Source: a virus
Lineage: Duplodnaviria > Caudoviricetes
Strand: one strand, 5' to 3'
IMG/VR virus record: IMGVR_UViG_3300035148_000226
Span: 1-26,273 of that record
Length of the DNA stretch: 26,273 nt
Shown: piece by piece, positions 16,732 through 25,597 of the stretch
Layout of the letters: each line of letters opens with the position of its first letter
Numbering within the stretch: the stretch's first letter is position 1
The notes under the pieces: model-generated
Seen by the model: only the letters and a program-made list of their open reading frames with translations
Database searches by the model: none
What the model was told of the DNA's origin: nothing
Program-made: the position numbers and the translations under genes

Positions 16732-17832
16732 TCATTCCCATGCTGTTACAGAATCGTGTTGTTGCTTGATGTTATTGACACGCATAAACTTGCTGTTTAC
16801 AAACTTTCGTTTGCCATCCAAAGCTTGTGCAATTTCACTTACTAATGTTTGAGTTGTCTGAACTGGCACATTTTGAAAGATGTGATTAACATACTTCAAT
16901 GGCAACTCTTCGTAATTCTTTGGCAACCCCATCATTGACATTAGTTCACGGACAGAAAGATAACGATCTTCATGAGGAGACAGCATATAAGCAATTGACC
17001 TCCACATTAAAGCGTTACTATGATCATTAACAAATGTTGGTGATATTGCCATTACATTTTTGTACTTAACTCTATCAAAGAGTTTAGTGTATTTAGCAGT
17101 TTTGTACTTAGCATCGCCCCATCCTAAATTCAAAGCAAGTCTGAATGCTGAACGTGGGCCATCAGTAACAGCTTCTTTATACAGATTAGCTCTACTGCCA
17201 AAATGTTTATATAGCTTATTCACTAATTCATCATCACTTCCTTTACCATTGAATACGTATTGCTTCTTGCCATGCTCAACTTTCCACTTATTCAATGGAA
17301 CATAGGGTTCATTAATCCACTTCAACTCTGGTAATTGTTTACCTTTCCATAATATAACAAATGTACGCTTACGATTCTGAGGTAAGCCATGCAATATTGA
17401 AGTTGTTTTGTACAATTGCATTGAGTACCCATACTTCTTTATCAAAGGAAAGAATCGTTTTGAAAATTCTATGCCACCTTCAGTATAAAGCAATGGCGCA
17501 TTTTCTATAAGAATGACTTGAGTCTTAGATTGCATACCAAACTCAGCTACATTTAACATGTGAATGTTCTGTGGTGCAGCGCAACTCATTCCAGTATTTG
17601 CTGACGATAATCCAGAACATGGCGGAGTACAAGTAATTATGTCTACCTTAGGCAATCTTGGTATTCCATTATCTACAGTATGATACGGAATATCAGGAAA
17701 ATATGATTTACACCATTTATCGTTTTCTGCAAAAGCTTCCCAACTCGCTAAATATGTCGGCTTCGCTTTTAACGCGTTAGTTGCTCCAATCGCTTGTCCG
17801 CCTGCTAGCGGTATGATGTGTGCGTGTTTCAT
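16732..17832 (-). CDS. C5-cytosine DNA methyltransferase-fold protein with atypical motifs I and X
   Basis: Motif IV PPCSGLS, VI IENA, VIII PQNRKRTF, IX RYLSVREL..MGLP; motif I IPLAGG; motif X FQNVPV. Confidence 0.85.
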   Translation of the reverse strand: MKHAHIIPLAGGQAIGATNALKAKPTYLASWEAFAENDKWCKSYFPDIPYHTVDNGIPRLPKVDIITCTPPCSGLSSANTGMSCAAPQNIHMLNVAEFGMQSKTQVILIENAPLLYTEGGIEFSKRFFPLIKKYGYSMQLYKTTSILHGLPQNRKRTFVILWKGKQLPELKWINEPYVPLNKWKVEHGKKQYVFNGKGSDDELVNKLYKHFGSRANLYKEAVTDGPRSAFRLALNLGWGDAKYKTAKYTKLFDRVKYKNVMAISPTFVNDHSNALMWRSIAYMLSPHEDRYLSVRELMSMMGLPKNYEELPLKYVNHIFQNVPVQTTQTLVSEIAQALDGKRKFVNSKFMRVNNIKQQHDSVTAWE

Positions 17833-18053: not shown

Positions 18054-20065
18054 TTACAGTAGCGTTTTACTGTTGGCCGCGATACGCCAGTAATCTTAGC
18101 AGTTTTGCTAAAGCTTTTACACTCATCGTATATTGACTTTATGAACTCGATGTTCTTTTTACTTAATGCAACACCGTTCTTTAACTCACTAATCTTACCA
18201 ATGTTTATTAAACGTGCAGTTTCTACTTGCTCATTAAGAATTGAGTCTCCACGCCAGTTCACCTTTGAATCTTGAAACGATTCTATAAAGTGAAATGACC
18301 TATACATATAGATCATTTGCTCCTCAATCATTTCCTTTGTCACATTGAACTGTGCTTCTTTTCTTGAGCCTTGCATCCAAAGTTTAACTGCTGCTCTTTT
18401 GATGCACTCCCTTATGCCCCGATCAACTAAATCAAACAGTATGTAATCTTCATACTCAGTTTTCAGTTTTATCTTTATGTCCTTTACAAACTGTTTGTCA
18501 TATTTTACTAATATGCTTTCTTGTGCACCAGTGCAAACATTCTTTATCATCTCAGAATCGATATACGTTTCTAATTTTGGTATGTTATACTTCTTATCAG
18601 TTATTTGACTACCAATTTCAACAAACGTAAGCCTACCAACCAAGCCATTCGAAACTTTATCTCTGAAATAGCTTACAATGTGGTCAGGTGTTCCACCAAT
18701 TAGCATAGCAACTTTAGCATTTTCTATTTCAAACATAGTTTTGCCAAACGTATCTTGCCTCTTTAACGATTTGCTTACCAATTCACCTTCCACCAATTGT
18801 AATAGTGTTCCCAATAAAGAAGCATTATGCTTTGCACCCACTGCTGCTGATGCTACACTTATTTCAGTTGTGTGAACTATGCACCTGTCATACTCTGATA
18901 ATGATGCAAGTAAAGCAGCTTCCGAGCCCTGAAAAGACCAGTCAATAAAGATATGTGGCAAAACTTTCTCTGCCTTTTTGATTTCAATAACTTCATTGTC
19001 CGGCACTTGCTTTATTTTGCTTACACCCGTGTACCTATCTAACGCTTCATTACGAAGGTCGGGTATGATTGGCTTTGCTATCTTATGTAGCTGTGTAACA
19101 ACATTATTAAGCTTACCTTTGCCTGAAGATGATTTGCCAACTAATACGATACTGTTGTTCACTGATATGCGTTCACCAAAGTAATCTATTTGCAATGGTA
19201 AGAATGCGCTTAATGCAGCTTGTACCATTAAGAATACTTGGTCATCTTCATTACAATAAACAGTTTCAGTTTCAGCTGCTTCAATCTTCTCTGGCTTAAC
19301 AACTATCACTGAAGACTTTATGTTCTTTATTGTTGGCGGGAACTCATATTGCTTTTCCCATTTATCATAGTATACTTCCCTTAACTTTGAAGTCTTTAAT
19401 GATACACTGTTATACAAAAGAGTTTCCATTTCAGCAACAACATCATCATGTGATTTACTTTTATTGCGTAACCATGAGTACACCGACAATGCCATGTCAT
19501 TATCAAGACCAACTAACTTATTCTTTGCATTAATGTAATAGTCTTCAGCACTTGATACAGTAGCTTCTTTGCTTGCTGTCGTTACAATATAACACTGTGC
19601 ATCCCAGTTTACTTTTATATGCTTATCGTAAGAGACATACCTACAACGATCATTATGAATTTGCCCCTCATTTGCTGGCATATCTAACTCACCTTGAATT
19701 AGTTTTCTATATGCAGCATATCGTTCATTAGGCATATCAGGCAAACGAAGTATTAGTGCATACCCTTTGCCCGACACAGACTCAAAGAACGCAAATACAA
19801 ATGGCTTTAGCTTCTCTGGTATCTTATTGCTTTCCCAGTCAACAACCATAAGCGGTAAATGATGAAGCCACACTGCATCCATACCGAGCTTATGTTTGCT
19901 ATACTTAGCATTGTCGAGTGGGTTAAACAATGTACGAGCCTTGAGTACTTGATTTTTCCATTTGCCATTCTTTACTCCATCAAAGAATGCACTCAATTCT
20001 ATTTGCTGTTTGAGTTTCTTCCTTGGAGTAGTTGATTTGCCAATAAATACTTTTTCTTTCATCAT
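18050..20065 (-). CDS. Primase-helicase-like protein (BT4734/VirE-N-like domain, DUF3987-like P-loop ATPase, C-terminal HTH)
   Basis: VKNGKWK..V...R, FESVSGKG and RCRYVSYD (VirE-N-like); Walker A LVGKSSSGKG; IGGTP and NGLVGRL.F (DUF3987-like); SFSKTAKITGVSRPTVKRY HTH. Confidence 0.75.
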   Translation of the reverse strand: MMKEKVFIGKSTTPRKKLKQQIELSAFFDGVKNGKWKNQVLKARTLFNPLDNAKYSKHKLGMDAVWLHHLPLMVVDWESNKIPEKLKPFVFAFFESVSGKGYALILRLPDMPNERYAAYRKLIQGELDMPANEGQIHNDRCRYVSYDKHIKVNWDAQCYIVTTASKEATVSSAEDYYINAKNKLVGLDNDMALSVYSWLRNKSKSHDDVVAEMETLLYNSVSLKTSKLREVYYDKWEKQYEFPPTIKNIKSSVIVVKPEKIEAAETETVYCNEDDQVFLMVQAALSAFLPLQIDYFGERISVNNSIVLVGKSSSGKGKLNNVVTQLHKIAKPIIPDLRNEALDRYTGVSKIKQVPDNEVIEIKKAEKVLPHIFIDWSFQGSEAALLASLSEYDRCIVHTTEISVASAAVGAKHNASLLGTLLQLVEGELVSKSLKRQDTFGKTMFEIENAKVAMLIGGTPDHIVSYFRDKVSNGLVGRLTFVEIGSQITDKKYNIPKLETYIDSEMIKNVCTGAQESILVKYDKQFVKDIKIKLKTEYEDYILFDLVDRGIRECIKRAAVKLWMQGSRKEAQFNVTKEMIEEQMIYMYRSFHFIESFQDSKVNWRGDSILNEQVETARLINIGKISELKNGVALSKKNIEFIKSIYDECKSFSKTAKITGVSRPTVKRYCK

Positions 20066-20391
20066 ACCTTCATGTACTTGTTTAAGTTGTTCTTAGCTCT
20101 AGTAAACTTTTTCTGATATCGTAAATTAGCTATTTCAACTGCTTCATTCATTGAAGTACCAGACTTAAGTTGCCTTGTTACATACACATCAATCAATCTC
20201 TCAAGATGATCAACGTATGCTTTCAATCCCTCGTACTTCAAATTGCTAAAGTACTCTGAATGCGTAACAATCTTGCCCATTAAGAACTTATCCTTTATTG
20301 GCTTACCATCTGGGCTTAAAGTGATTGGCCCAGAAACGTGAAATGGCTTTATCAAATAGATATCCCTTTCTCTGTCTATTACTTTTTTCAT
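20062..20391 (-). CDS. Hypothetical protein
   Basis: ATG at 20391 gives ATGA overlaps at both ends. Confidence 0.7.
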   Translation of the reverse strand: MKKVIDRERDIYLIKPFHVSGPITLSPDGKPIKDKFLMGKIVTHSEYFSNLKYEGLKAYVDHLERLIDVYVTRQLKSGTSMNEAVEIANLRYQKKFTRAKNNLNKYMKV

Positions 20392-20576
20392 TTCAATATC
20401 TTGATTATTTGTTTCCAAGCTTTTTGTAGGTCGCCTTTGAACACCTTTACTTCACCATCAATTGTAAGTGTTAACCCAGTGATGAGTTTAGTTTTATTGT
20501 CAACAGTTGCATCAATGCAATTTTTACTACTCTTTGATGAGTAGGTTGTTTTGTTAGTTTGTGCGCTAATCTTCAT
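20388..20576 (-). CDS. Hypothetical protein
   Basis: 62 aa with A-rich initiation region AAACAAAATCAT-ATG. Confidence 0.65.
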   Translation of the reverse strand: MKISAQTNKTTYSSKSSKNCIDATVDNKTKLITGLTLTIDGEVKVFKGDLQKAWKQIIKILK

Positions 20577-20698: not shown

Positions 20699-21331
20699 TT
20701 ACATTCTTATTGCTGGCTGCATGTCGCCACTGAATATCAATCCGTTTTTACGATCAATACCAGATGGGTGATTTTCCATGTTAAAGTCAACAAGTTGTGT
20801 ATCTATTTTCCAATCATACTTCTTAAACAATGCAATCCAAAAGCCATGCCATTGACAATTGATATGCCCTGAACCAATCTGCCCAGGTGTTGCAGCAGTA
20901 AAGTATACTACCTTGCAATTACGAACTATGTTTCTTACAAGCGTATCACTGTACTTAAAGTTAAGATGCTCAGCTACCTCACGGCACCATATCATATCAA
21001 CACCACCTTTTACTTTAATGTTGTTACGAATATCTATTGCCATGAATTTGCTTTTATCAAATAGCAATGAAGGTATAATCTTTTCACTGCCATCAATTGC
21101 AATTACATCAATGCCAAGCTTTAGCATATTCACTGTATCAACTCCGAGTCCGCATCCCATGTCCAAAGCAGTTTTTACTTTGTACTTTTTAATTATCTGA
21201 GACATCGTTCTTGTGTATGGATTGCGTGGCATCTTTTGCCGTGCATATCTTTCAACGTCTTCAAATATTGTGTGATCAACTTTAACCTCCACATCATTGT
21301 ATGGTGTTACTTTTACTTTGCTTCTTTCCAT
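20699..21331 (-). CDS. Class I SAM-dependent methyltransferase (small-molecule/glycan type, not a DNA MTase)
   Basis: ALDMGCGLG, IAIDGS, DMIWCREVAEHL, FTAATPGQ.G.GHINCQ...FW; no DPPY or PC motif. Confidence 0.85.
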   Translation of the reverse strand: MERSKVKVTPYNDVEVKVDHTIFEDVERYARQKMPRNPYTRTMSQIIKKYKVKTALDMGCGLGVDTVNMLKLGIDVIAIDGSEKIIPSLLFDKSKFMAIDIRNNIKVKGGVDMIWCREVAEHLNFKYSDTLVRNIVRNCKVVYFTAATPGQIGSGHINCQWHGFWIALFKKYDWKIDTQLVDFNMENHPSGIDRKNGLIFSGDMQPAIRM

Positions 21332-22944
21332 GTTTTTACAAGTTTAGGTGTTGTACGTACTAAGTTATATTTCAAAATGTCAAATGCTGCTTTATTCATT
21401 ATGTTTTGTTTTACAGTAACCCATTGCTTTGCATAATTGTTTTTAACCTCAGTTATGATTTCATCATGGATGCATGTGACTATCTTTACTGGTAACTTAT
21501 GTTCGTAAATGTGTTCGTATAATCTTACCAAAGATAGCTTTAACATATCAGCAGCAGTTCCCTGTATGGGAGTGTTCTTTGCTTTATTACGCTTTTGCCA
21601 ATCCTCACCATCGAGTATTCGTAAACGATTGTAAGGAGCAAAAGAACTAATCTTACCTTCACGTATTCCAATGGCTCCATTCTTTTCAAGCCACCGAGTT
21701 AGTTTTGGCACAGACAGCTTATACTTTCTTACAATGCTCTCTGCTTTTGATAAAGGTAAATTAGATTTTTCTGCAAATGCTTTAACACCTTGCCCGTAAG
21801 CTAATCCAAAGTTTAAGTCTTTTGCTAACCTACGTAATTCAGGTTTAAAGTCTTCACCAAAGATTAGTTTAGCCATGTGAGAATGTAAGTCACCTCCACT
21901 TTCCATTACTTTAATCCATGAAGGTTCGTTACTCCCAGCTGCCATGATACCAAGCTCCTGGCCTGAAAAGTCTGCAACACATAAGGTATATCCCTTTGCT
22001 GCAATAAAAGCTTCACGGTGGTCACCAGTTGCTGGCAATTGTTGCATATTAGGATTGCTTGAGCTGTAACGCCCAGTATCAATTATCTGATTGAAGTTAC
22101 ATCTTACTCTGCCATCACTGTCAACTGTACTTTCAGTTTCATGCTTATCACGCCAAAGCCAAGACTTACCATAACTCGTTACTGACTTATAGTATTCCCT
22201 CATCAATATGAATTGATCTAAACGTTTGTCTTTGCCTTTCATATCAGGCAACTCTTCAAATGATTTTAGACCGAGATGTTTGAACTCCTCTTTAACTTGC
22301 TTAGGTGAGTTCCAATTTATAGTGTTGCCTAGTTTTTTCAATTGCTTATTGTAAACTGCTTCATTAGCATTAGCAATTTCTAACCAACGTTCAGTATCAA
22401 ATTGAAACCCATTGTATCGCATTTCAGAAGTTGCTTCAACACATCGCATCTCTAAGTCTAACACCTCTAACATCTCAAGTTGTTTAAGGGAACTATATTG
22501 CAATAGTGCAAGCTTATGAAGATACTTAACATCATTCTTTGCATACTCAATATACTCCTTTGTTATTGGAGCATTATGTTCTACATCTTTATTGAGATTA
22601 GCAAGTTCATGGCGAGTTAAAGTATCTTTTAATGAAGCTGATATTCCCATGCGTCCAGCAATCAATAGCTTTTCAGCTAACATAGTATCAAACACATTAC
22701 GTATATGAATACCAGTTTGAAGTCTAATGAACGGCACATCAAATGCAGCATTATGAATTATCTTCATTACAGAATCATCAGTAAGTATGTTCTTTATTTT
22801 GTTGCAATCGTAATCAACAACTGGGAACTTTCCTTTGAAACTATAAGCCACTAATCTAATTTTGCCACTGAATATGTTAAGCCCATCAGTTTCAATATCT
22901 AATGCAATAGCATTCTTAATACTTTTTTCCGATATGGTTGTCAT
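21313..22944 (-). CDS. polA: Family A DNA polymerase with 3'-5' exonuclease
   Basis: ExoI DIET, ExoII HNAAFD, ExoIII YAKND; TGRYSSSNPNMQQLP, motif A DFSGQEL, motif B RRLAKDLNFGLAYG, NTPIQGTAAD, motif C IHDE. Confidence 0.95.
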   Translation of the reverse strand: MTTISEKSIKNAIALDIETDGLNIFSGKIRLVAYSFKGKFPVVDYDCNKIKNILTDDSVMKIIHNAAFDVPFIRLQTGIHIRNVFDTMLAEKLLIAGRMGISASLKDTLTRHELANLNKDVEHNAPITKEYIEYAKNDVKYLHKLALLQYSSLKQLEMLEVLDLEMRCVEATSEMRYNGFQFDTERWLEIANANEAVYNKQLKKLGNTINWNSPKQVKEEFKHLGLKSFEELPDMKGKDKRLDQFILMREYYKSVTSYGKSWLWRDKHETESTVDSDGRVRCNFNQIIDTGRYSSSNPNMQQLPATGDHREAFIAAKGYTLCVADFSGQELGIMAAGSNEPSWIKVMESGGDLHSHMAKLIFGEDFKPELRRLAKDLNFGLAYGQGVKAFAEKSNLPLSKAESIVRKYKLSVPKLTRWLEKNGAIGIREGKISSFAPYNRLRILDGEDWQKRNKAKNTPIQGTAADMLKLSLVRLYEHIYEHKLPVKIVTCIHDEIITEVKNNYAKQWVTVKQNIMNKAAFDILKYNLVRTTPKLVKTWKEAK

Positions 22945-23560
22945 ATATGTGTAGGTTAGTTATGAAGTAATGCATTGTGCCTGGTATCAAACCTAATTCT
23001 TTAGCACAGTCTTCTAATAATTTACTGAAACAATATTGGTCATTGCAAAAACCAAATACTAAATCAACAGACCGAGCAAAGATAGTAATGTATAATGTGT
23101 TACTAATAGTAAAAAAGTTAAGCACAACATTACACGGCGTATCTTTTCTGTACAAATCATTTGAAGCTTCATCAGGTGAGTAGTGCGCAACAATTGACCT
23201 ACGTGTAAAAGGATCTTTACGTAATAAGTCTAATGCATAACCAAGTTGATTGTTACGAATCCACCAAGCACCGTAATTGCTATTCACATAACCAGAGTCA
23301 TCTTTCATTTTTGACCAAAGCTTTGCTCCAGCTTCAATCATAGTATCTGGATTACGATCACCTGACTTATACCACTCGTATTCTTTTTGAGCATAAGTAT
23401 GTTTGAAACCTCTATTGTCATTCACAATAATATTGTAATGTGGTCTCATTAAAGTAAATGACACATTGAATATTGCTAATGTGTTTTGTCTAATGATGCC
23501 CTCATCTTCTATCTTTTTTGCTAAAGCTTCGTAAGCTTCATTTGCTGAGTAGTACTTCAT
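22916..23560 (-). CDS. Thymidylate-synthase-fold enzyme, dCMP hydroxymethylase-like (T4 gp42-like)
   Basis: EYEWY.S, VNSNYG, DPFTRR, DTPC (catalytic Cys), RSVDLVFGFCND with Asp at the position of T4 gp42 D179 / E. coli ThyA N177, NLHIY. Confidence 0.85.
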   Translation of the reverse strand: MKYYSANEAYEALAKKIEDEGIIRQNTLAIFNVSFTLMRPHYNIIVNDNRGFKHTYAQKEYEWYKSGDRNPDTMIEAGAKLWSKMKDDSGYVNSNYGAWWIRNNQLGYALDLLRKDPFTRRSIVAHYSPDEASNDLYRKDTPCNVVLNFFTISNTLYITIFARSVDLVFGFCNDQYCFSKLLEDCAKELGLIPGTMHYFITNLHIYDNHIGKKY

Positions 23561-24480
23561 TTTTTTATCTGTTTCATTTTAGTTAAGTCAAACTTTATGT
23601 TCTTAAATTCACTTTTAAGTTCAGCCAACATTTTACGTTGAAGGTTGATATACTTAGTGTGATTACGTTTAACTCTTTCAACATCATCCATGAAAGTATC
23701 TGGAGATGTGATAAGCTCTTTTGGATATGGAAATCCAAAGCGGTGAGATACTAATCCAATTGTTGTTGTGAACCAAGGTTCGTAACACCGTGTTGTGATT
23801 TGACTTTTACTGTAATGAATTTTTTCATCACCAATAATAGGTGTTGCATAAGCTTTATTAATTAATGGCCACATATTTTTATTGTAAGGTAGCCATTCAT
23901 AATACTCATGTTCATAACCAACAATTAAAACTTTGCTTCTTTCAATAGGGTCAAGGTAAGTTGCTAATTGTTCTTGGCGTTTTGAGTCTCTACGATTTCC
24001 AAAGTACACAACATCAAATTGTTTTTTCTTATTGTCTAACAAAGGAATATCTTTATTAGCATAATAGAACTTAAGAAAATCTGTTTGATAGTTATAAAGG
24101 TATTCACAGTTGCATAGCTTATCTAATGCTTTCTTTGAGCCAGGTATCTTACGATCTTGCTCAAGTTGCTTAGGCATAAGCTTTGGGTCAGTGATATACA
24201 CAATAACTCTTTCAGCTTTGTTAATTAGCTCAACCATTTTGAAAGCTGTTTGTTTTGGTACACCACCATAAAAGTTTAAGTTGGGGTTTACTAAAACCAA
24301 CTCATCAACTTTAGTAACATCATACATAGAAATTCTACGGTCTGATATCAAATCAAACTTTTCATTATCAGAAAGTATTGGTGCATCCATATATTCTCCT
24401 AATGATGCAAATAGAAATCCACCAATGTTGTGGCCGAGAGTATCAATGCTCAATCTGCCAATTGCGCGTTTTAGTTTCAT
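23557..24480 (-). CDS. DNA beta-glucosyltransferase homologue (T4 BGT-like, GT-B fold)
   Basis: Colinear motifs against the recalled T4 BGT sequence: DELVLVNPNLNFYGG (DRLIVVNSSINFFGG), YITDPKL (LFTDIRL), FDVVYFGNRRDSKRQ (LDVIYGGSFRSGQRE), IIGDE...ITTRCYE (IIGDK...ITLRVWE). Confidence 0.85.
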   Translation of the reverse strand: MKLKRAIGRLSIDTLGHNIGGFLFASLGEYMDAPILSDNEKFDLISDRRISMYDVTKVDELVLVNPNLNFYGGVPKQTAFKMVELINKAERVIVYITDPKLMPKQLEQDRKIPGSKKALDKLCNCEYLYNYQTDFLKFYYANKDIPLLDNKKKQFDVVYFGNRRDSKRQEQLATYLDPIERSKVLIVGYEHEYYEWLPYNKNMWPLINKAYATPIIGDEKIHYSKSQITTRCYEPWFTTTIGLVSHRFGFPYPKELITSPDTFMDDVERVKRNHTKYINLQRKMLAELKSEFKNIKFDLTKMKQIKK

Positions 24481-24803
24481 TTTGTTTTGTTTATGTAATT
24501 GTTTAATCCTTCAGTATAACCAATAATGTCGACCAAAGTATCGAAGTTACTATGGGCGTGTAAGCGAGATAGCTTTAATGCTAACATCAGTTTAAATGCA
24601 TCTTCAGTTGTGATGTCTTTACCAATAAGCACAGTAGCAATCTTTGCCATTCTTTCCATTGAGTCATTAAAGCCACCATGAGTTTTATCACGGTCACCAG
24701 CTCTAACGTTTACAATCTCATTTGCTTTCTTTATTGCAGATTGTTTTGACAACTTCAAGTAAAAACTTGAGTTCTTTTTCTTGTTGTTTTGTTTCTTTTT
24801 CAT
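24477..24803 (-). CDS. DUF6378-like all-alpha protein (possible nucleotide pyrophosphohydrolase)
   Basis: A.EIV....DR...HG....SM.R.A.IA...MLALKLSR......D.LVDI.GY pattern; start uncertain (86-nt overlap upstream). Confidence 0.7.
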   Translation of the reverse strand: MKKKQNNKKKNSSFYLKLSKQSAIKKANEIVNVRAGDRDKTHGGFNDSMERMAKIATVLIGKDITTEDAFKLMLALKLSRLHAHSNFDTLVDIIGYTEGLNNYINKTK

Positions 24804-25528: not shown

Positions 25529-25560
25529 AAAAAAGGTGTACTGCAATAAAGCAGCACACC
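25529..25560 (-). terminator. Rho-independent terminator after the SSB gene
   Basis: Minus-strand RNA GGUGUGCUGC-UUUAUU-GCAGUACACC-UUUUUU: a 10-bp stem with one G.U pair that forms only on this strand. Confidence 0.85.
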
Positions 25561-25597
25561 CTGTGAAAAAAACAACACTAACTAAAACAAAACAATA

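Follow-up and report, generated by a model that had tools for sequence, protein, structure and literature searches.

A probable T4-type cytosine glycosylation operon with a family A polymerase in a small, likely Bacteroidota phage

Described systems and how the locus compares

Phage T4, with its dCMP hydroxymethylase gp42 and its beta-glucosyltransferase (BGT; PF09198; PDB 1b49, 1bgt and 1qkj), is the reference for the locus that we describe here. Two cultured siphoviruses of 80–86 kb, Enterococcus phage nattely (Vipetofemvirus) and Lactobacillus phage ATCCB, have a thymidylate synthase (TS)-fold gene with an Asp at ThyA position 177 next to a BGT gene. The Enterococcus siphoviruses VPE25 and VFW have glycosylated cytosine, and their DNA is resistant to bisulfite, EcoRI and MspI and is cut by PvuRts1I (PMC4999554). 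Bacteroides phage BF503P2 (53.6 kb) has PolA and a carbamoyltransferase as its modifier, in a hydroxymethylcytosine (hmC) pathway (Yang et al. 2021, PMC8670742). In metaviromes, the GT-B gene has a ThyS nearby in about 28% of GT-B contigs, and neighbors include DNA polymerases and methyltransferases (Pyle et al., bioRxiv 2023.12.21.572611). Finally, cluster O mycobacteriophages have a cassette in which a methyltransferase travels with glycosyltransferases (GTs) (PMC4351075).

The window, which is the whole 26,273-nt stretch of DNA that we analyzed, is an entire IMG/VR record in which we found no terminal repeat, so the contig is likely incomplete. Five minus-strand ORFs lie within positions 20699–24803. 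They encode a DUF6378 protein, a BGT-like GT, a TS-fold enzyme, a family A polymerase and a class I methyltransferase (MT), and when we recomputed the overlaps from the sequence they were 4, 4, 29 and 19 nt. A preliminary description had given the same layout and the same family calls, PolA included, and all of these hold. Neighboring ORFs also overlap (an upstream exonuclease ORF overlaps the DUF6378 ORF, and ORF 20062–20418 shares 4 nt with the primase ORF), so gene overlap alone does not define the five genes as one pathway. The Bacteroidota host that had been suggested is likely, since 145 of 148 portal matches name Bacteroides, Phocaeicola, Parabacteroides, Cellulophaga or Tenacibaculum.

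As in T4, a TS with Asp at ThyA positions 143, 169 and 177 adjoins a GT-B enzyme of the BGT fold with the catalytic Asp. Unlike T4, this phage has a family A polymerase, a small genome, DUF6378 instead of gp56, no gp1 that we could see, and an extra class I MT. Its TS is 25% identical to T4 gp42 and its GT is 21% identical to T4 BGT and 44 aa shorter. The BGTs of nattely and ATCCB are far closer to that of T4 (PF09198 E 2e-61 and 9e-22), and no methyltransferase is annotated in the stretches that we compared; nattely also differs in its DnaE-type polymerase, and ATCCB adds a UDP-galactopyranose mutase. BF503P2 is likewise a small Bacteroidota phage with PolA and a TS of the same clade (40% identity, FCNDQ motif), but it has the carbamoyltransferase rather than a BGT, as well as a P-loop kinase-like gene, a dUTPase and a second Asp177 TS. 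The metavirome clusters differ in that their assayed enzymes are TET-linked, and the products described in the preprint (bioRxiv 2023.12.21.572611) include no methylated sugar. The closest viral relatives of our MT travel with GTs as in the cluster O cassette, which differs in its location among virion genes and its GT2 partners.

The preliminary description had placed the operon outside the known systems, taken there to be large myoviruses with family B polymerases. That view finds no support, because 80–86 kb siphoviruses with TS and BGT and a 54-kb Bacteroides phage with PolA exist. With the siphovirus TS+BGT pairs, the glycosylated cytosine of VPE25 and the published ThyS+GT-B clusters, the operon is less new than had been supposed.

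The predicted enzymes and their neighborhoods

The TS-fold enzyme (22916–23560, minus strand, 214 aa) matches Thymidylat_synt in Pfam (PF00303, E 1.6e-21). Its residues D140, C143, N144, D166 and D174 align with D145, C148, T149, D171 and D179 of T4 gp42. The catalytic Cys is kept (C143), and Asp stands at ThyA positions 143 (D140), 169 (D166) and 177 (D174), the last being the dCMP-specifying Asp that had been reported earlier. The signature rules, as set out in PMC13326640, are that an Asp at 177 means dCMP, an acidic residue at 143 means a hydroxymethyl product, and an Asn at 169 marks 5-hydroxy-dCMP synthases of the RB69 gp48 type; we also judged the signature by rules from PMC8670742. Where the RB69 gp48 type requires Asn169 our enzyme has D166, and where canonical ThyA has Asn177, His147 and a hydrophobic residue at 143 it has D174, N144 and D140. 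All of the NCBIfam ThyA models score it far below cut-off. The three Asp are kept in all 94 distinct relatives, the closest of which is 69% identical and lies on a 33,530-bp contig, and several relatives have a second, canonical Asn177 TS beside the Asp177 TS. In the TS tree our enzyme fell in no starred group, so the tree did not settle its placement. On the basis of these residues we predict that it is a dCMP hydroxymethylase.

The BGT-like enzyme (23557–24480, minus strand, 307 aa) scores 19.3 bits against T4-Gluco-transf (PF09198), which is under the Pfam gathering cut-off of 27. It matches the PHROG beta-glucosyltransferase family with E 2.8e-9 and T4 BGT (1bgt) with E 3.4e-5 in phmmer. 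A Foldseek comparison with T4 BGT had been proposed, and it bore out the assignment: for the AlphaFold model (pLDDT 90.8), T4 BGT made up the top six matches (E 3.7e-11 to 6.2e-8, TM 0.64–0.69), the next family in the list came at E 5e-5, and the Atlas gave a TM of 0.75 to a PF09198 cluster. The GT keeps NFYGG for the NFFGG loop of T4, R164/R168/R231 for Arg191/195/269 and E234 for Glu272, and T4 N66, N70, G73, G74, R191, R195, D258, R269 and E272 are invariant across 13 aligned GT sequences. T4 E22, which presumably has a sugar-binding role, has no counterpart in the alignment. D98 corresponds to D100 of T4 BGT, which is named as catalytic in a preprint that also describes BGT-like enzymes able to transfer Kdo or heptose (bioRxiv 2023.12.21.572611). 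The modeled fold and the kept residues lead us to predict a BGT-like enzyme that glycosylates hmC in DNA.

No locus came out of IMG/VR scans that used the GT by itself or either of two GT alignments, and a metagenome scan found one 3.8-kb locus whose GT is 32% identical and which has no TS within it. Four of five close GT records match a close TS record in the size of the longest contig (35603, 6361, 3623 and 2435 bp), where sizes and not sequences were compared. Judging by these equal contig sizes, close TS and GT relatives likely travel together. The pairing is rare, however, because none of the 140 IMG/VR locus records of the TS clade has a BGT-like gene and the closest TS relative has no corresponding GT record. 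A BGT-profile match in one TS locus (L129) was rejected since it falls on an esterase-like gene. In the neighborhood survey in IMG/VR that had been suggested, DUF6378 accompanies 87 of the 94 distinct TS relatives.

The DUF6378 protein (24477–24803, minus strand, 108 aa) matches PF19905 above cut-off (E 1.8e-14) and has conserved R34, K77, R80, D88, D92 and Y96 across 49 sequences. In hhalign against four single sequences it had no similarity to T4 gp56 or MazG-like proteins (probability 0.26% for gp56, a one-sequence template), which gives no support to DUF6378 as a dCTPase, and an Atlas search returned DUF6378 clusters only. Its co-occurrence with the TS suggests that it is likely a nucleotide-pool enzyme in place of the T4 dCTPase. 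The polymerase (21313–22944, minus strand, 543 aa) matches DNA_pol_A (PF00476, E 7.8e-57) and a 3'-5' exonuclease (PF01612, E 3.7e-19), with both sets of motifs present. Cultured phage PolA matches are at most 27% identical, and a PolA locus scan found no relative.

Pfam and PHROG searches of 28–31 ORFs and a P-loop pattern scan recognized no gp1-type dNMP kinase, as the preliminary description had remarked, and no gp56-type dCTPase on this incomplete contig. A promoter scan gave 26 matches, below the mean of 38.9 in shuffled sequence. GATC, CATG and CTAG are avoided in the contig, but the T4, nattely or BF503P2 stretches avoid the same words, so we rejected palindrome avoidance as a discriminating signal; C/G-only palindromes are not avoided in the contig.

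A T4-type pathway, its product and the methyltransferase

We observed genes, folds, residues and neighborhoods, and from these we infer every chemical step given here. We are fairly confident that the core of the operon is a T4-type cytosine-replacement pathway to glycosyl-hmC. The TS-fold enzyme would convert dCMP to 5-hydroxymethyl-dCMP, a kinase not seen on the contig would take this to the triphosphate, and the family A polymerase would build hydroxymethyl-dCTP into DNA. The BGT-like enzyme would then likely add a sugar to the hydroxyl of hmC in DNA, and this modification would protect the phage genome against restriction by the host. DUF6378 likely serves the nucleotide pool. Because the contig has no sugar-activating gene, the sugar probably comes from a host NDP-sugar, and it is probably a hexose, not necessarily glucose. 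Counting against this pathway are the divergence of the GT (its identity and length, sub-cut-off Pfam score and missing E22), the Kdo and heptose transfer of BGT-like enzymes, the lack of a recognized dNMP kinase or dCTPase, a DUF6378 that matches neither gp56 nor MazG-like proteins, the rarity of the TS-GT pairing, and a Dcm-like gene nearby. It is very improbable that the TS makes another C5 product (5mdCMP or 5hodCMP), in which case the sugar would sit on a base other than hmC or could not be attached at all. Asp177 enzymes do include methylases and flavin hydroxylases, and the parts of the literature that we covered held no assayed member of the TS clade. But Asp143 and Asp169 speak against methylase and hydroxylase alike, and the same clade is paired in BF503P2 with a carbamoyltransferase of a type that acts on hmC (PMC8670742).

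The 210-aa MT (20699–21331, minus strand) is a class I SAM-dependent enzyme of the small-molecule or glycan type. Its Pfam matches are Methyltransf_11 (above cut-off), 12, 23, 25 and 31 and TehB only, with none to the N6A, N4C or C5 DNA methyltransferase families. For its model (pLDDT 88), the PDB fold matches listed were generic small-molecule methyltransferases with no DNA methyltransferase, and structure searches gave no clue to the substrate. Both IMG/VR relatives (42% and 45% identical) are surrounded by GT2 and PIG-L genes in a stretch flanked by head-tail genes, six of the 50 best viral fold matches are named glycosyltransferase proteins, and one bacterial relative lies in a polysaccharide locus (L090). 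Most of the bacterial relatives scanned adjoin housekeeping genes, so the glycan link of the family is not universal. Homology to Corndog gp35 was not found; tblastn matched only Caulobacter phage Cr30. Most likely the MT is a glycan O-methyltransferase, a lineage addition outside the conserved core.

We lean slightly toward a non-DNA glycan, on the virion or on the surface of the host, as the target of the MT, or toward a passenger gene; in either case the DNA would have plain glycosyl-hmC. The GT2 and PIG-L surroundings of its relatives resemble the O-methyltransferase/GT cassette of cluster O mycobacteriophages (PMC4351075), the polysaccharide locus agrees, and neither TS nor BGT occurs in any of 17 loci of MT relatives. 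On the other hand, our contig has no GT2 cassette, the MT gene is in the replication block and not among virion genes, and there are the housekeeping neighbors. A DNA-linked sugar is a doubtful target and another one is more likely, although an MT that O-methylates the sugar to give a methyl-glycosyl-hmC base would fit its position at the end of a run of overlapping replication-phase genes, in a glycan-associated family, on a contig where Pfam and PHROG recognized no other GT and no GT cassette in the terminase-to-portal block. This is countered by the 17 loci, by the 35,603-bp contig with TS and GT relatives, whose length none of the 13 MT homologs shares, and by the 58–62% identical homologs (on 43,794, 15,763 and 3,183 bp), none of which corresponds to a TS or GT record listed; PolA also stands between the MT and the TS and GT, and further GTs could be encoded in the part of the genome that the contig lacks. 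The O-methyl-glucosyl-hmC offered earlier as an example accordingly found no comparative support in these 17 loci and 13 homologs, and glucose was not demonstrated. It is improbable that the MT caps hmC directly, as 5-methoxymethyl-C, wherever the GT has added no sugar. A different class I MT is found inside DUF6378-TS operons of 5 of the 94 TS relatives (one, L116, reads PolA-DUF6378-MT-MazG-TS), and because it never occurs with the common three-gene modifier set or a BGT, class I MTs in such operons may be stand-alone hmC modifiers. That family is distant from our MT (profile E about 1e-5; no blastp match), which is much closer to GT2-cassette enzymes, and some of its loci carry GT2 genes by the terminase (L072).

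Extent of substitution and meaning of the locus

A Dcm-like C5-cytosine methyltransferase gene of the S-TIM5 gp80 family (16732–17832, minus strand) lies outside the five-gene span, 3 kb downstream, and is possibly part of the cytosine system. It matches PF00145 (E 1.9e-17, 64 bits against a cut-off of 22), is 35% identical to the S-TIM5 protein and 30% to that of Pseudoalteromonas phage XG4, and keeps the PC (P-C72) and ENA (E110-N111) motifs; motif I is atypical and the TIGR00675 score is below cut-off. In 10 of 11 IMG/VR loci an Asp177 TS is within 10 kb of such a gene. Because the gene fits poorly with full replacement of C, it suggests partial substitution, in which host dCTP continues to be incorporated and the remaining C is a substrate for the Dcm-like enzyme. 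We hold this tentatively, as a possibility compatible with the T4-type pathway. The motifs look intact, no dCTPase was recognized (Pfam, PHROG, hhalign of DUF6378), and CpG is depleted (rho 0.51, the lowest among 16 sequences compared), but the depletion is partly due to low third-position C use. The Dcm family also occurs with Asp177 TS in T4-like phages that have dCTPase-like genes (XG4, L115), so another role is possible.

Taken to its full extent, the locus would make a three-tier base, with hmC, a sugar (perhaps not glucose) added by a divergent BGT, and an O-methyl group added by an MT from glycan cassettes, while the Dcm-like enzyme covers leftover C; we consider this unlikely as a whole. 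Our literature search found no methyl-glycosyl-hmC base in print. Iyer et al. 2013 reportedly predicted that sugars on DNA are decorated further, so a methylated sugar may already have been proposed there. If true, methylation of the sugar on DNA would be a chemically new response to defenses that read sugars, and an MT acting on that sugar would offer a route of escape from those that recognize glucosyl-hmC.

The core would widen the range of T4-type glycosyl-hmC to include a small phage that has a family A polymerase and is likely of Bacteroidota, and the co-occurrence of DUF6378 with the TS points to it as an uncharacterized core part of hmC pathways. The operon is also a compact testable set, with a short divergent BGT (possibly with a new sugar, and possibly of use as a labeling reagent) together with a PolA for which hm-dCTP would be a substrate.

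The five-gene run and its surroundings

The five reading frames proposed in the preliminary description, with their overlaps of 4, 4, 29 and 19 nt, were confirmed on the window sequence. All lie on the minus strand: DUF6378 (24477-24803), a BGT-like glycosyltransferase (GT, 23557-24480; BGT is the T4 beta-glucosyltransferase), a thymidylate-synthase-fold protein predicted to be a dCMP hydroxymethylase (TS, 22916-23560), PolA (21313-22944) and a class I SAM-dependent methyltransferase (MT, 20699-21331). Ahead of the run on that strand come a replication gene of SSB-like type (NF046043) and a gene resembling exonuclease VIII. It is followed by two small ORFs, a primase-like gene, a gene for a C5-methyltransferase-like (Dcm-like) protein of the S-TIM5 gp80 family (16732-17832, minus strand, outside the span described earlier), the terminase and virion genes. 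There is a strong terminator-like hairpin of 12 pairs at 25533-25562 (minus strand), 3' of the SSB-like gene and upstream of the exonuclease gene and the run.

Because the window is the entire assembly and we found no terminal repeat in it, it is likely a partial genome. As remarked earlier, no dNMP kinase is recognised in the window by Pfam, PHROG or a P-loop pattern scan, the last of which misses variants; a kinase may be located in the missing DNA or be supplied by the host. The proposed Bacteroidota host agrees with the portal, for which 145 of 148 cultured-phage matches name Bacteroides, Phocaeicola, Parabacteroides, Cellulophaga or Tenacibaculum. Among the matches listed, 11 of 15 portal-matching cultured phages are 36-38 kb. 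Gene starts in the window have A-rich sequence upstream and no Shine-Dalgarno motif, which is a Bacteroidota trait. From a tape-measure-like gene and the absence of a sheath match, we infer a probable siphovirus morphology.

Predicted hydroxymethylase and glycosyltransferase

Aligned with T4 gp42, the window TS places D140, C143, D166 and D174 at T4 D145, C148, D171 and D179. It has Asp at ThyA positions 177, 143 and 169 alike; dCMP selection comes from Asp at 177, hydroxymethylation is associated with an acidic residue at 143, and Asn at 169 is the mark of flavin hydroxylases (Lee et al. 2026, PMC13326640). Residue 147 is not His; this position has been linked with modified contigs (Yang et al. 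2021, PMC8670742).

The window GT scores under the Pfam cut-off and is 21% identical to T4 BGT. A structure search had been suggested as a check, and the six best PDB matches of the GT model (pLDDT 90.8, built from 28 sequences) are all T4 BGT. T4 residues N66, N70, G73, G74, D100, R191, R195, D258, R269 and E272 are invariant in a 13-sequence alignment with T4 BGT, and D100 has been named catalytic (Pyle et al., bioRxiv 2023.12.21.572611). Since the T4 segment bearing E22 has no counterpart in the window GT alignment, and some BGT-like enzymes add Kdo or heptose (same preprint), glucose is only a guess as the sugar.

Relatives of the GT are few (2 at 57-60%, 2 further at 32-34%, and 23 weak matches); the Atlas offers, as a lead only, 28 viral clusters with similar features. 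Pairing of TS and GT in close relatives was judged from equal longest-contig sizes, not from their DNA, and by that measure four of five close GT records equal a close TS record (35603, 6361, 3623 and 2435). The fifth (2402) has no TS record of equal size, nor does the closest TS relative (69%, 33,530 bp) have a GT record of equal size.

Two methyltransferase genes

The only matches of the MT model (pLDDT 88) are to generic methyltransferases of small molecules (best E 2e-6), and 6 of its top 50 viral structure matches are named glycosyltransferase proteins. Two points speak for MT O-methylating a DNA-linked sugar to give methyl-glycosyl-hmC (hmC is 5-hydroxymethylcytosine): its gene is the last of the overlapping five, and no GT other than the BGT-like enzyme is recognised on the window. 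Against this, profile searches found neither TS nor BGT in any of 17 MT loci (2 viral, 14 bacterial, Cr30), and contig sizes do not match those of TS+GT relatives. None of the longest contigs of the 13 MT homologues (42-62% identity) is 35,603 bp, the size common to TS+GT relatives; for the three closest homologues (43,794; 15,763; 3,183 bp), no record of equal size is present in 21 TS clusters (E <= 1e-60) or among GT records. This comparison sees longest contigs and close relatives only, so it weakens the case for a role on DNA and does no more.

Both IMG/VR loci are on GC-rich phage contigs, where GT2 and PIG-L genes surround them and head-tail genes lie on either side, and they resemble a cluster O mycobacteriophage cassette (PMC4351075). 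For the 14 bacterial loci (26-34% identity), a scan of 29 of 58 neighbouring ORFs, drawn from 12 loci, showed one polysaccharide cluster, with most others housekeeping and GMP synthase in five. We regard methyl-glycosyl-hmC as unlikely and a direct capping of hmC by MT as quite improbable; that MT has a non-DNA target, or is a passenger, is on balance the probable reading. Operons of DUF6378, a 250-aa class I methyltransferase, a MazG-like gene, sometimes a deaminase, and a hydroxymethylase occur at loci L068, L071, L072, L077, L078, L116, L139, L141 and L142. They have no BGT and no esterase/PLP set, L116 also has PolA, and their methyltransferase is a candidate for placing a methyl cap directly on hmC.

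For the Dcm-like gene, 10 of 11 IMG/VR loci have an Asp177 TS no more than 10 kb away, as do S-TIM5, XG4 and the window (set L084, L085, L105-L115). Because nine of those ten loci are S-TIM5-like, the association amounts to about three lineages, the window's included. In XG4 and L115 the gene is last in a TS-phosphatase-nucleotidyltransferase-two-gene cluster. It is puzzling that the S-TIM5-type family pairs a C5 methyltransferase with pre-replicative modification at C5. The window enzyme may methylate leftover C, and substitution would therefore be partial. CpG is strongly depleted across 1-26273 (rho 0.51) with CA/TG in excess, and codons very seldom end in C (GCC 12 vs GCA 269); the CpG depletion is consistent with partial substitution, short of proof. 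S-TIM5 gp076 (L084:6766-7602), annotated as a thymidylate synthase, may be a dCMP methylase because its residue at ThyA 177 is Asp and the one at 143 is not acidic.

Precedents and a shared core

The preliminary description offered a candidate new pathway, and here we disagree: precedents are known, and the set is probably an added case of the T4-type pathway. In nattely, an Enterococcus phage of 85.7 kb, and in ATCCB, a Lactobacillus phage of 80.5 kb, an Asp143/169/177 TS adjoins a beta-glucosyltransferase, although the nattely polymerase is DnaE-type rather than PolA. In siphophages VPE25 and VFW cytosine is modified, and the modification is likely glycosylation (Duerkop et al. 2016, PMC4999554). 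ATCCB carries TS, BGT and UDP-galactopyranose mutase (L104:8998-12053), a gene set pointing to galactofuranosyl-hmC in this cultured phage. Bacteroides phage BF503P2 (53.6 kb) shares PolA and the TS clade with the window, but its modifier is a carbamoyltransferase. At L081:6633-12663 this cultured 54-kb PolA phage has the carbamoyltransferase (annotated hypothetical), a P-loop kinase-like gene, a dUTPase and a pair of distinct Asp177 TS paralogues.

ThyS adjoins about 28% of GT-B contigs, with polymerases and methyltransferases among the neighbours (Pyle et al., bioRxiv 2023.12.21.572611), DNA_pol_A is one of the top-ranking domains next to the dCMP deaminases and Asp177 TS of modified contigs (bioRxiv 2024.12.05.627091), and 753 phages have T-even GT homologues (PMC13216743). 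No cultured phage among the matches listed joins PolA, the window-type TS and BGT. This combination may be unreported, with the supplements of PMC13326640, PMC8670742 and two preprints being places that could list such contigs or members of the TS clade that have been assayed, and it is a member-level difference from known systems. The literature searched, supplements apart, yielded no methylated DNA sugar. We consider the run a real predicted T4-type glycosyl-hmC operon of a small Bacteroidota-type phage, likely functional, with a chance of a new or methylated sugar.

Two IMG/VR scans (best 80 of 112; best 80 of 576, the second covering 39 of 64 parts) gave 140 locus records (L001-L080, L116-L175), some contigs being present twice, with 94 distinct TS proteins. 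Among these best-ranked loci, all 94 proteins keep the three Asp, 87 are accompanied by DUF6378 and 78 by a dCMP deaminase, and PolA is in view for 19. At least one gene of a three-gene set is present with 73; two members we take to be esterase-like and aGPT-PPlase-like, and the PLP-enzyme-like third matches the PHROG threonine dehydratase. With five, no gene of that set occurs, and a class I methyltransferase other than the window MT is present. One has a 345-aa gene whose PHROG match is of unknown function, possibly a glycosyltransferase of another family than the window GT (L074:5673-8625, ordered dUTPase, DUF6378, hydroxymethylase, 345-aa gene, in a small phage with a portal resembling the window's). 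Two loci (L123:10001-11812 and L175:10001-11806) have the hydroxymethylase fused to a further domain (~600 aa). The window GT, window MT and nattely BGT had no blastp match at the loci of the 94.

DUF6378 conserves R34, K77, R80, D88, D92 and Y96 in a 49-sequence alignment, residues that might fit a small nucleotide enzyme. Neither T4 gp56 nor any of three MazG/PRA-PH-like proteins matched it, although as single-sequence templates these are weak. A separate MazG-like gene accompanies 32 of the 94 TS relatives as well, which argues against DUF6378 being simply the dCTPase. From the gene counts across the 94 relatives, the hydroxymethylase and DUF6378 are a common core with exchangeable modifiers, of which the BGT version is rare.
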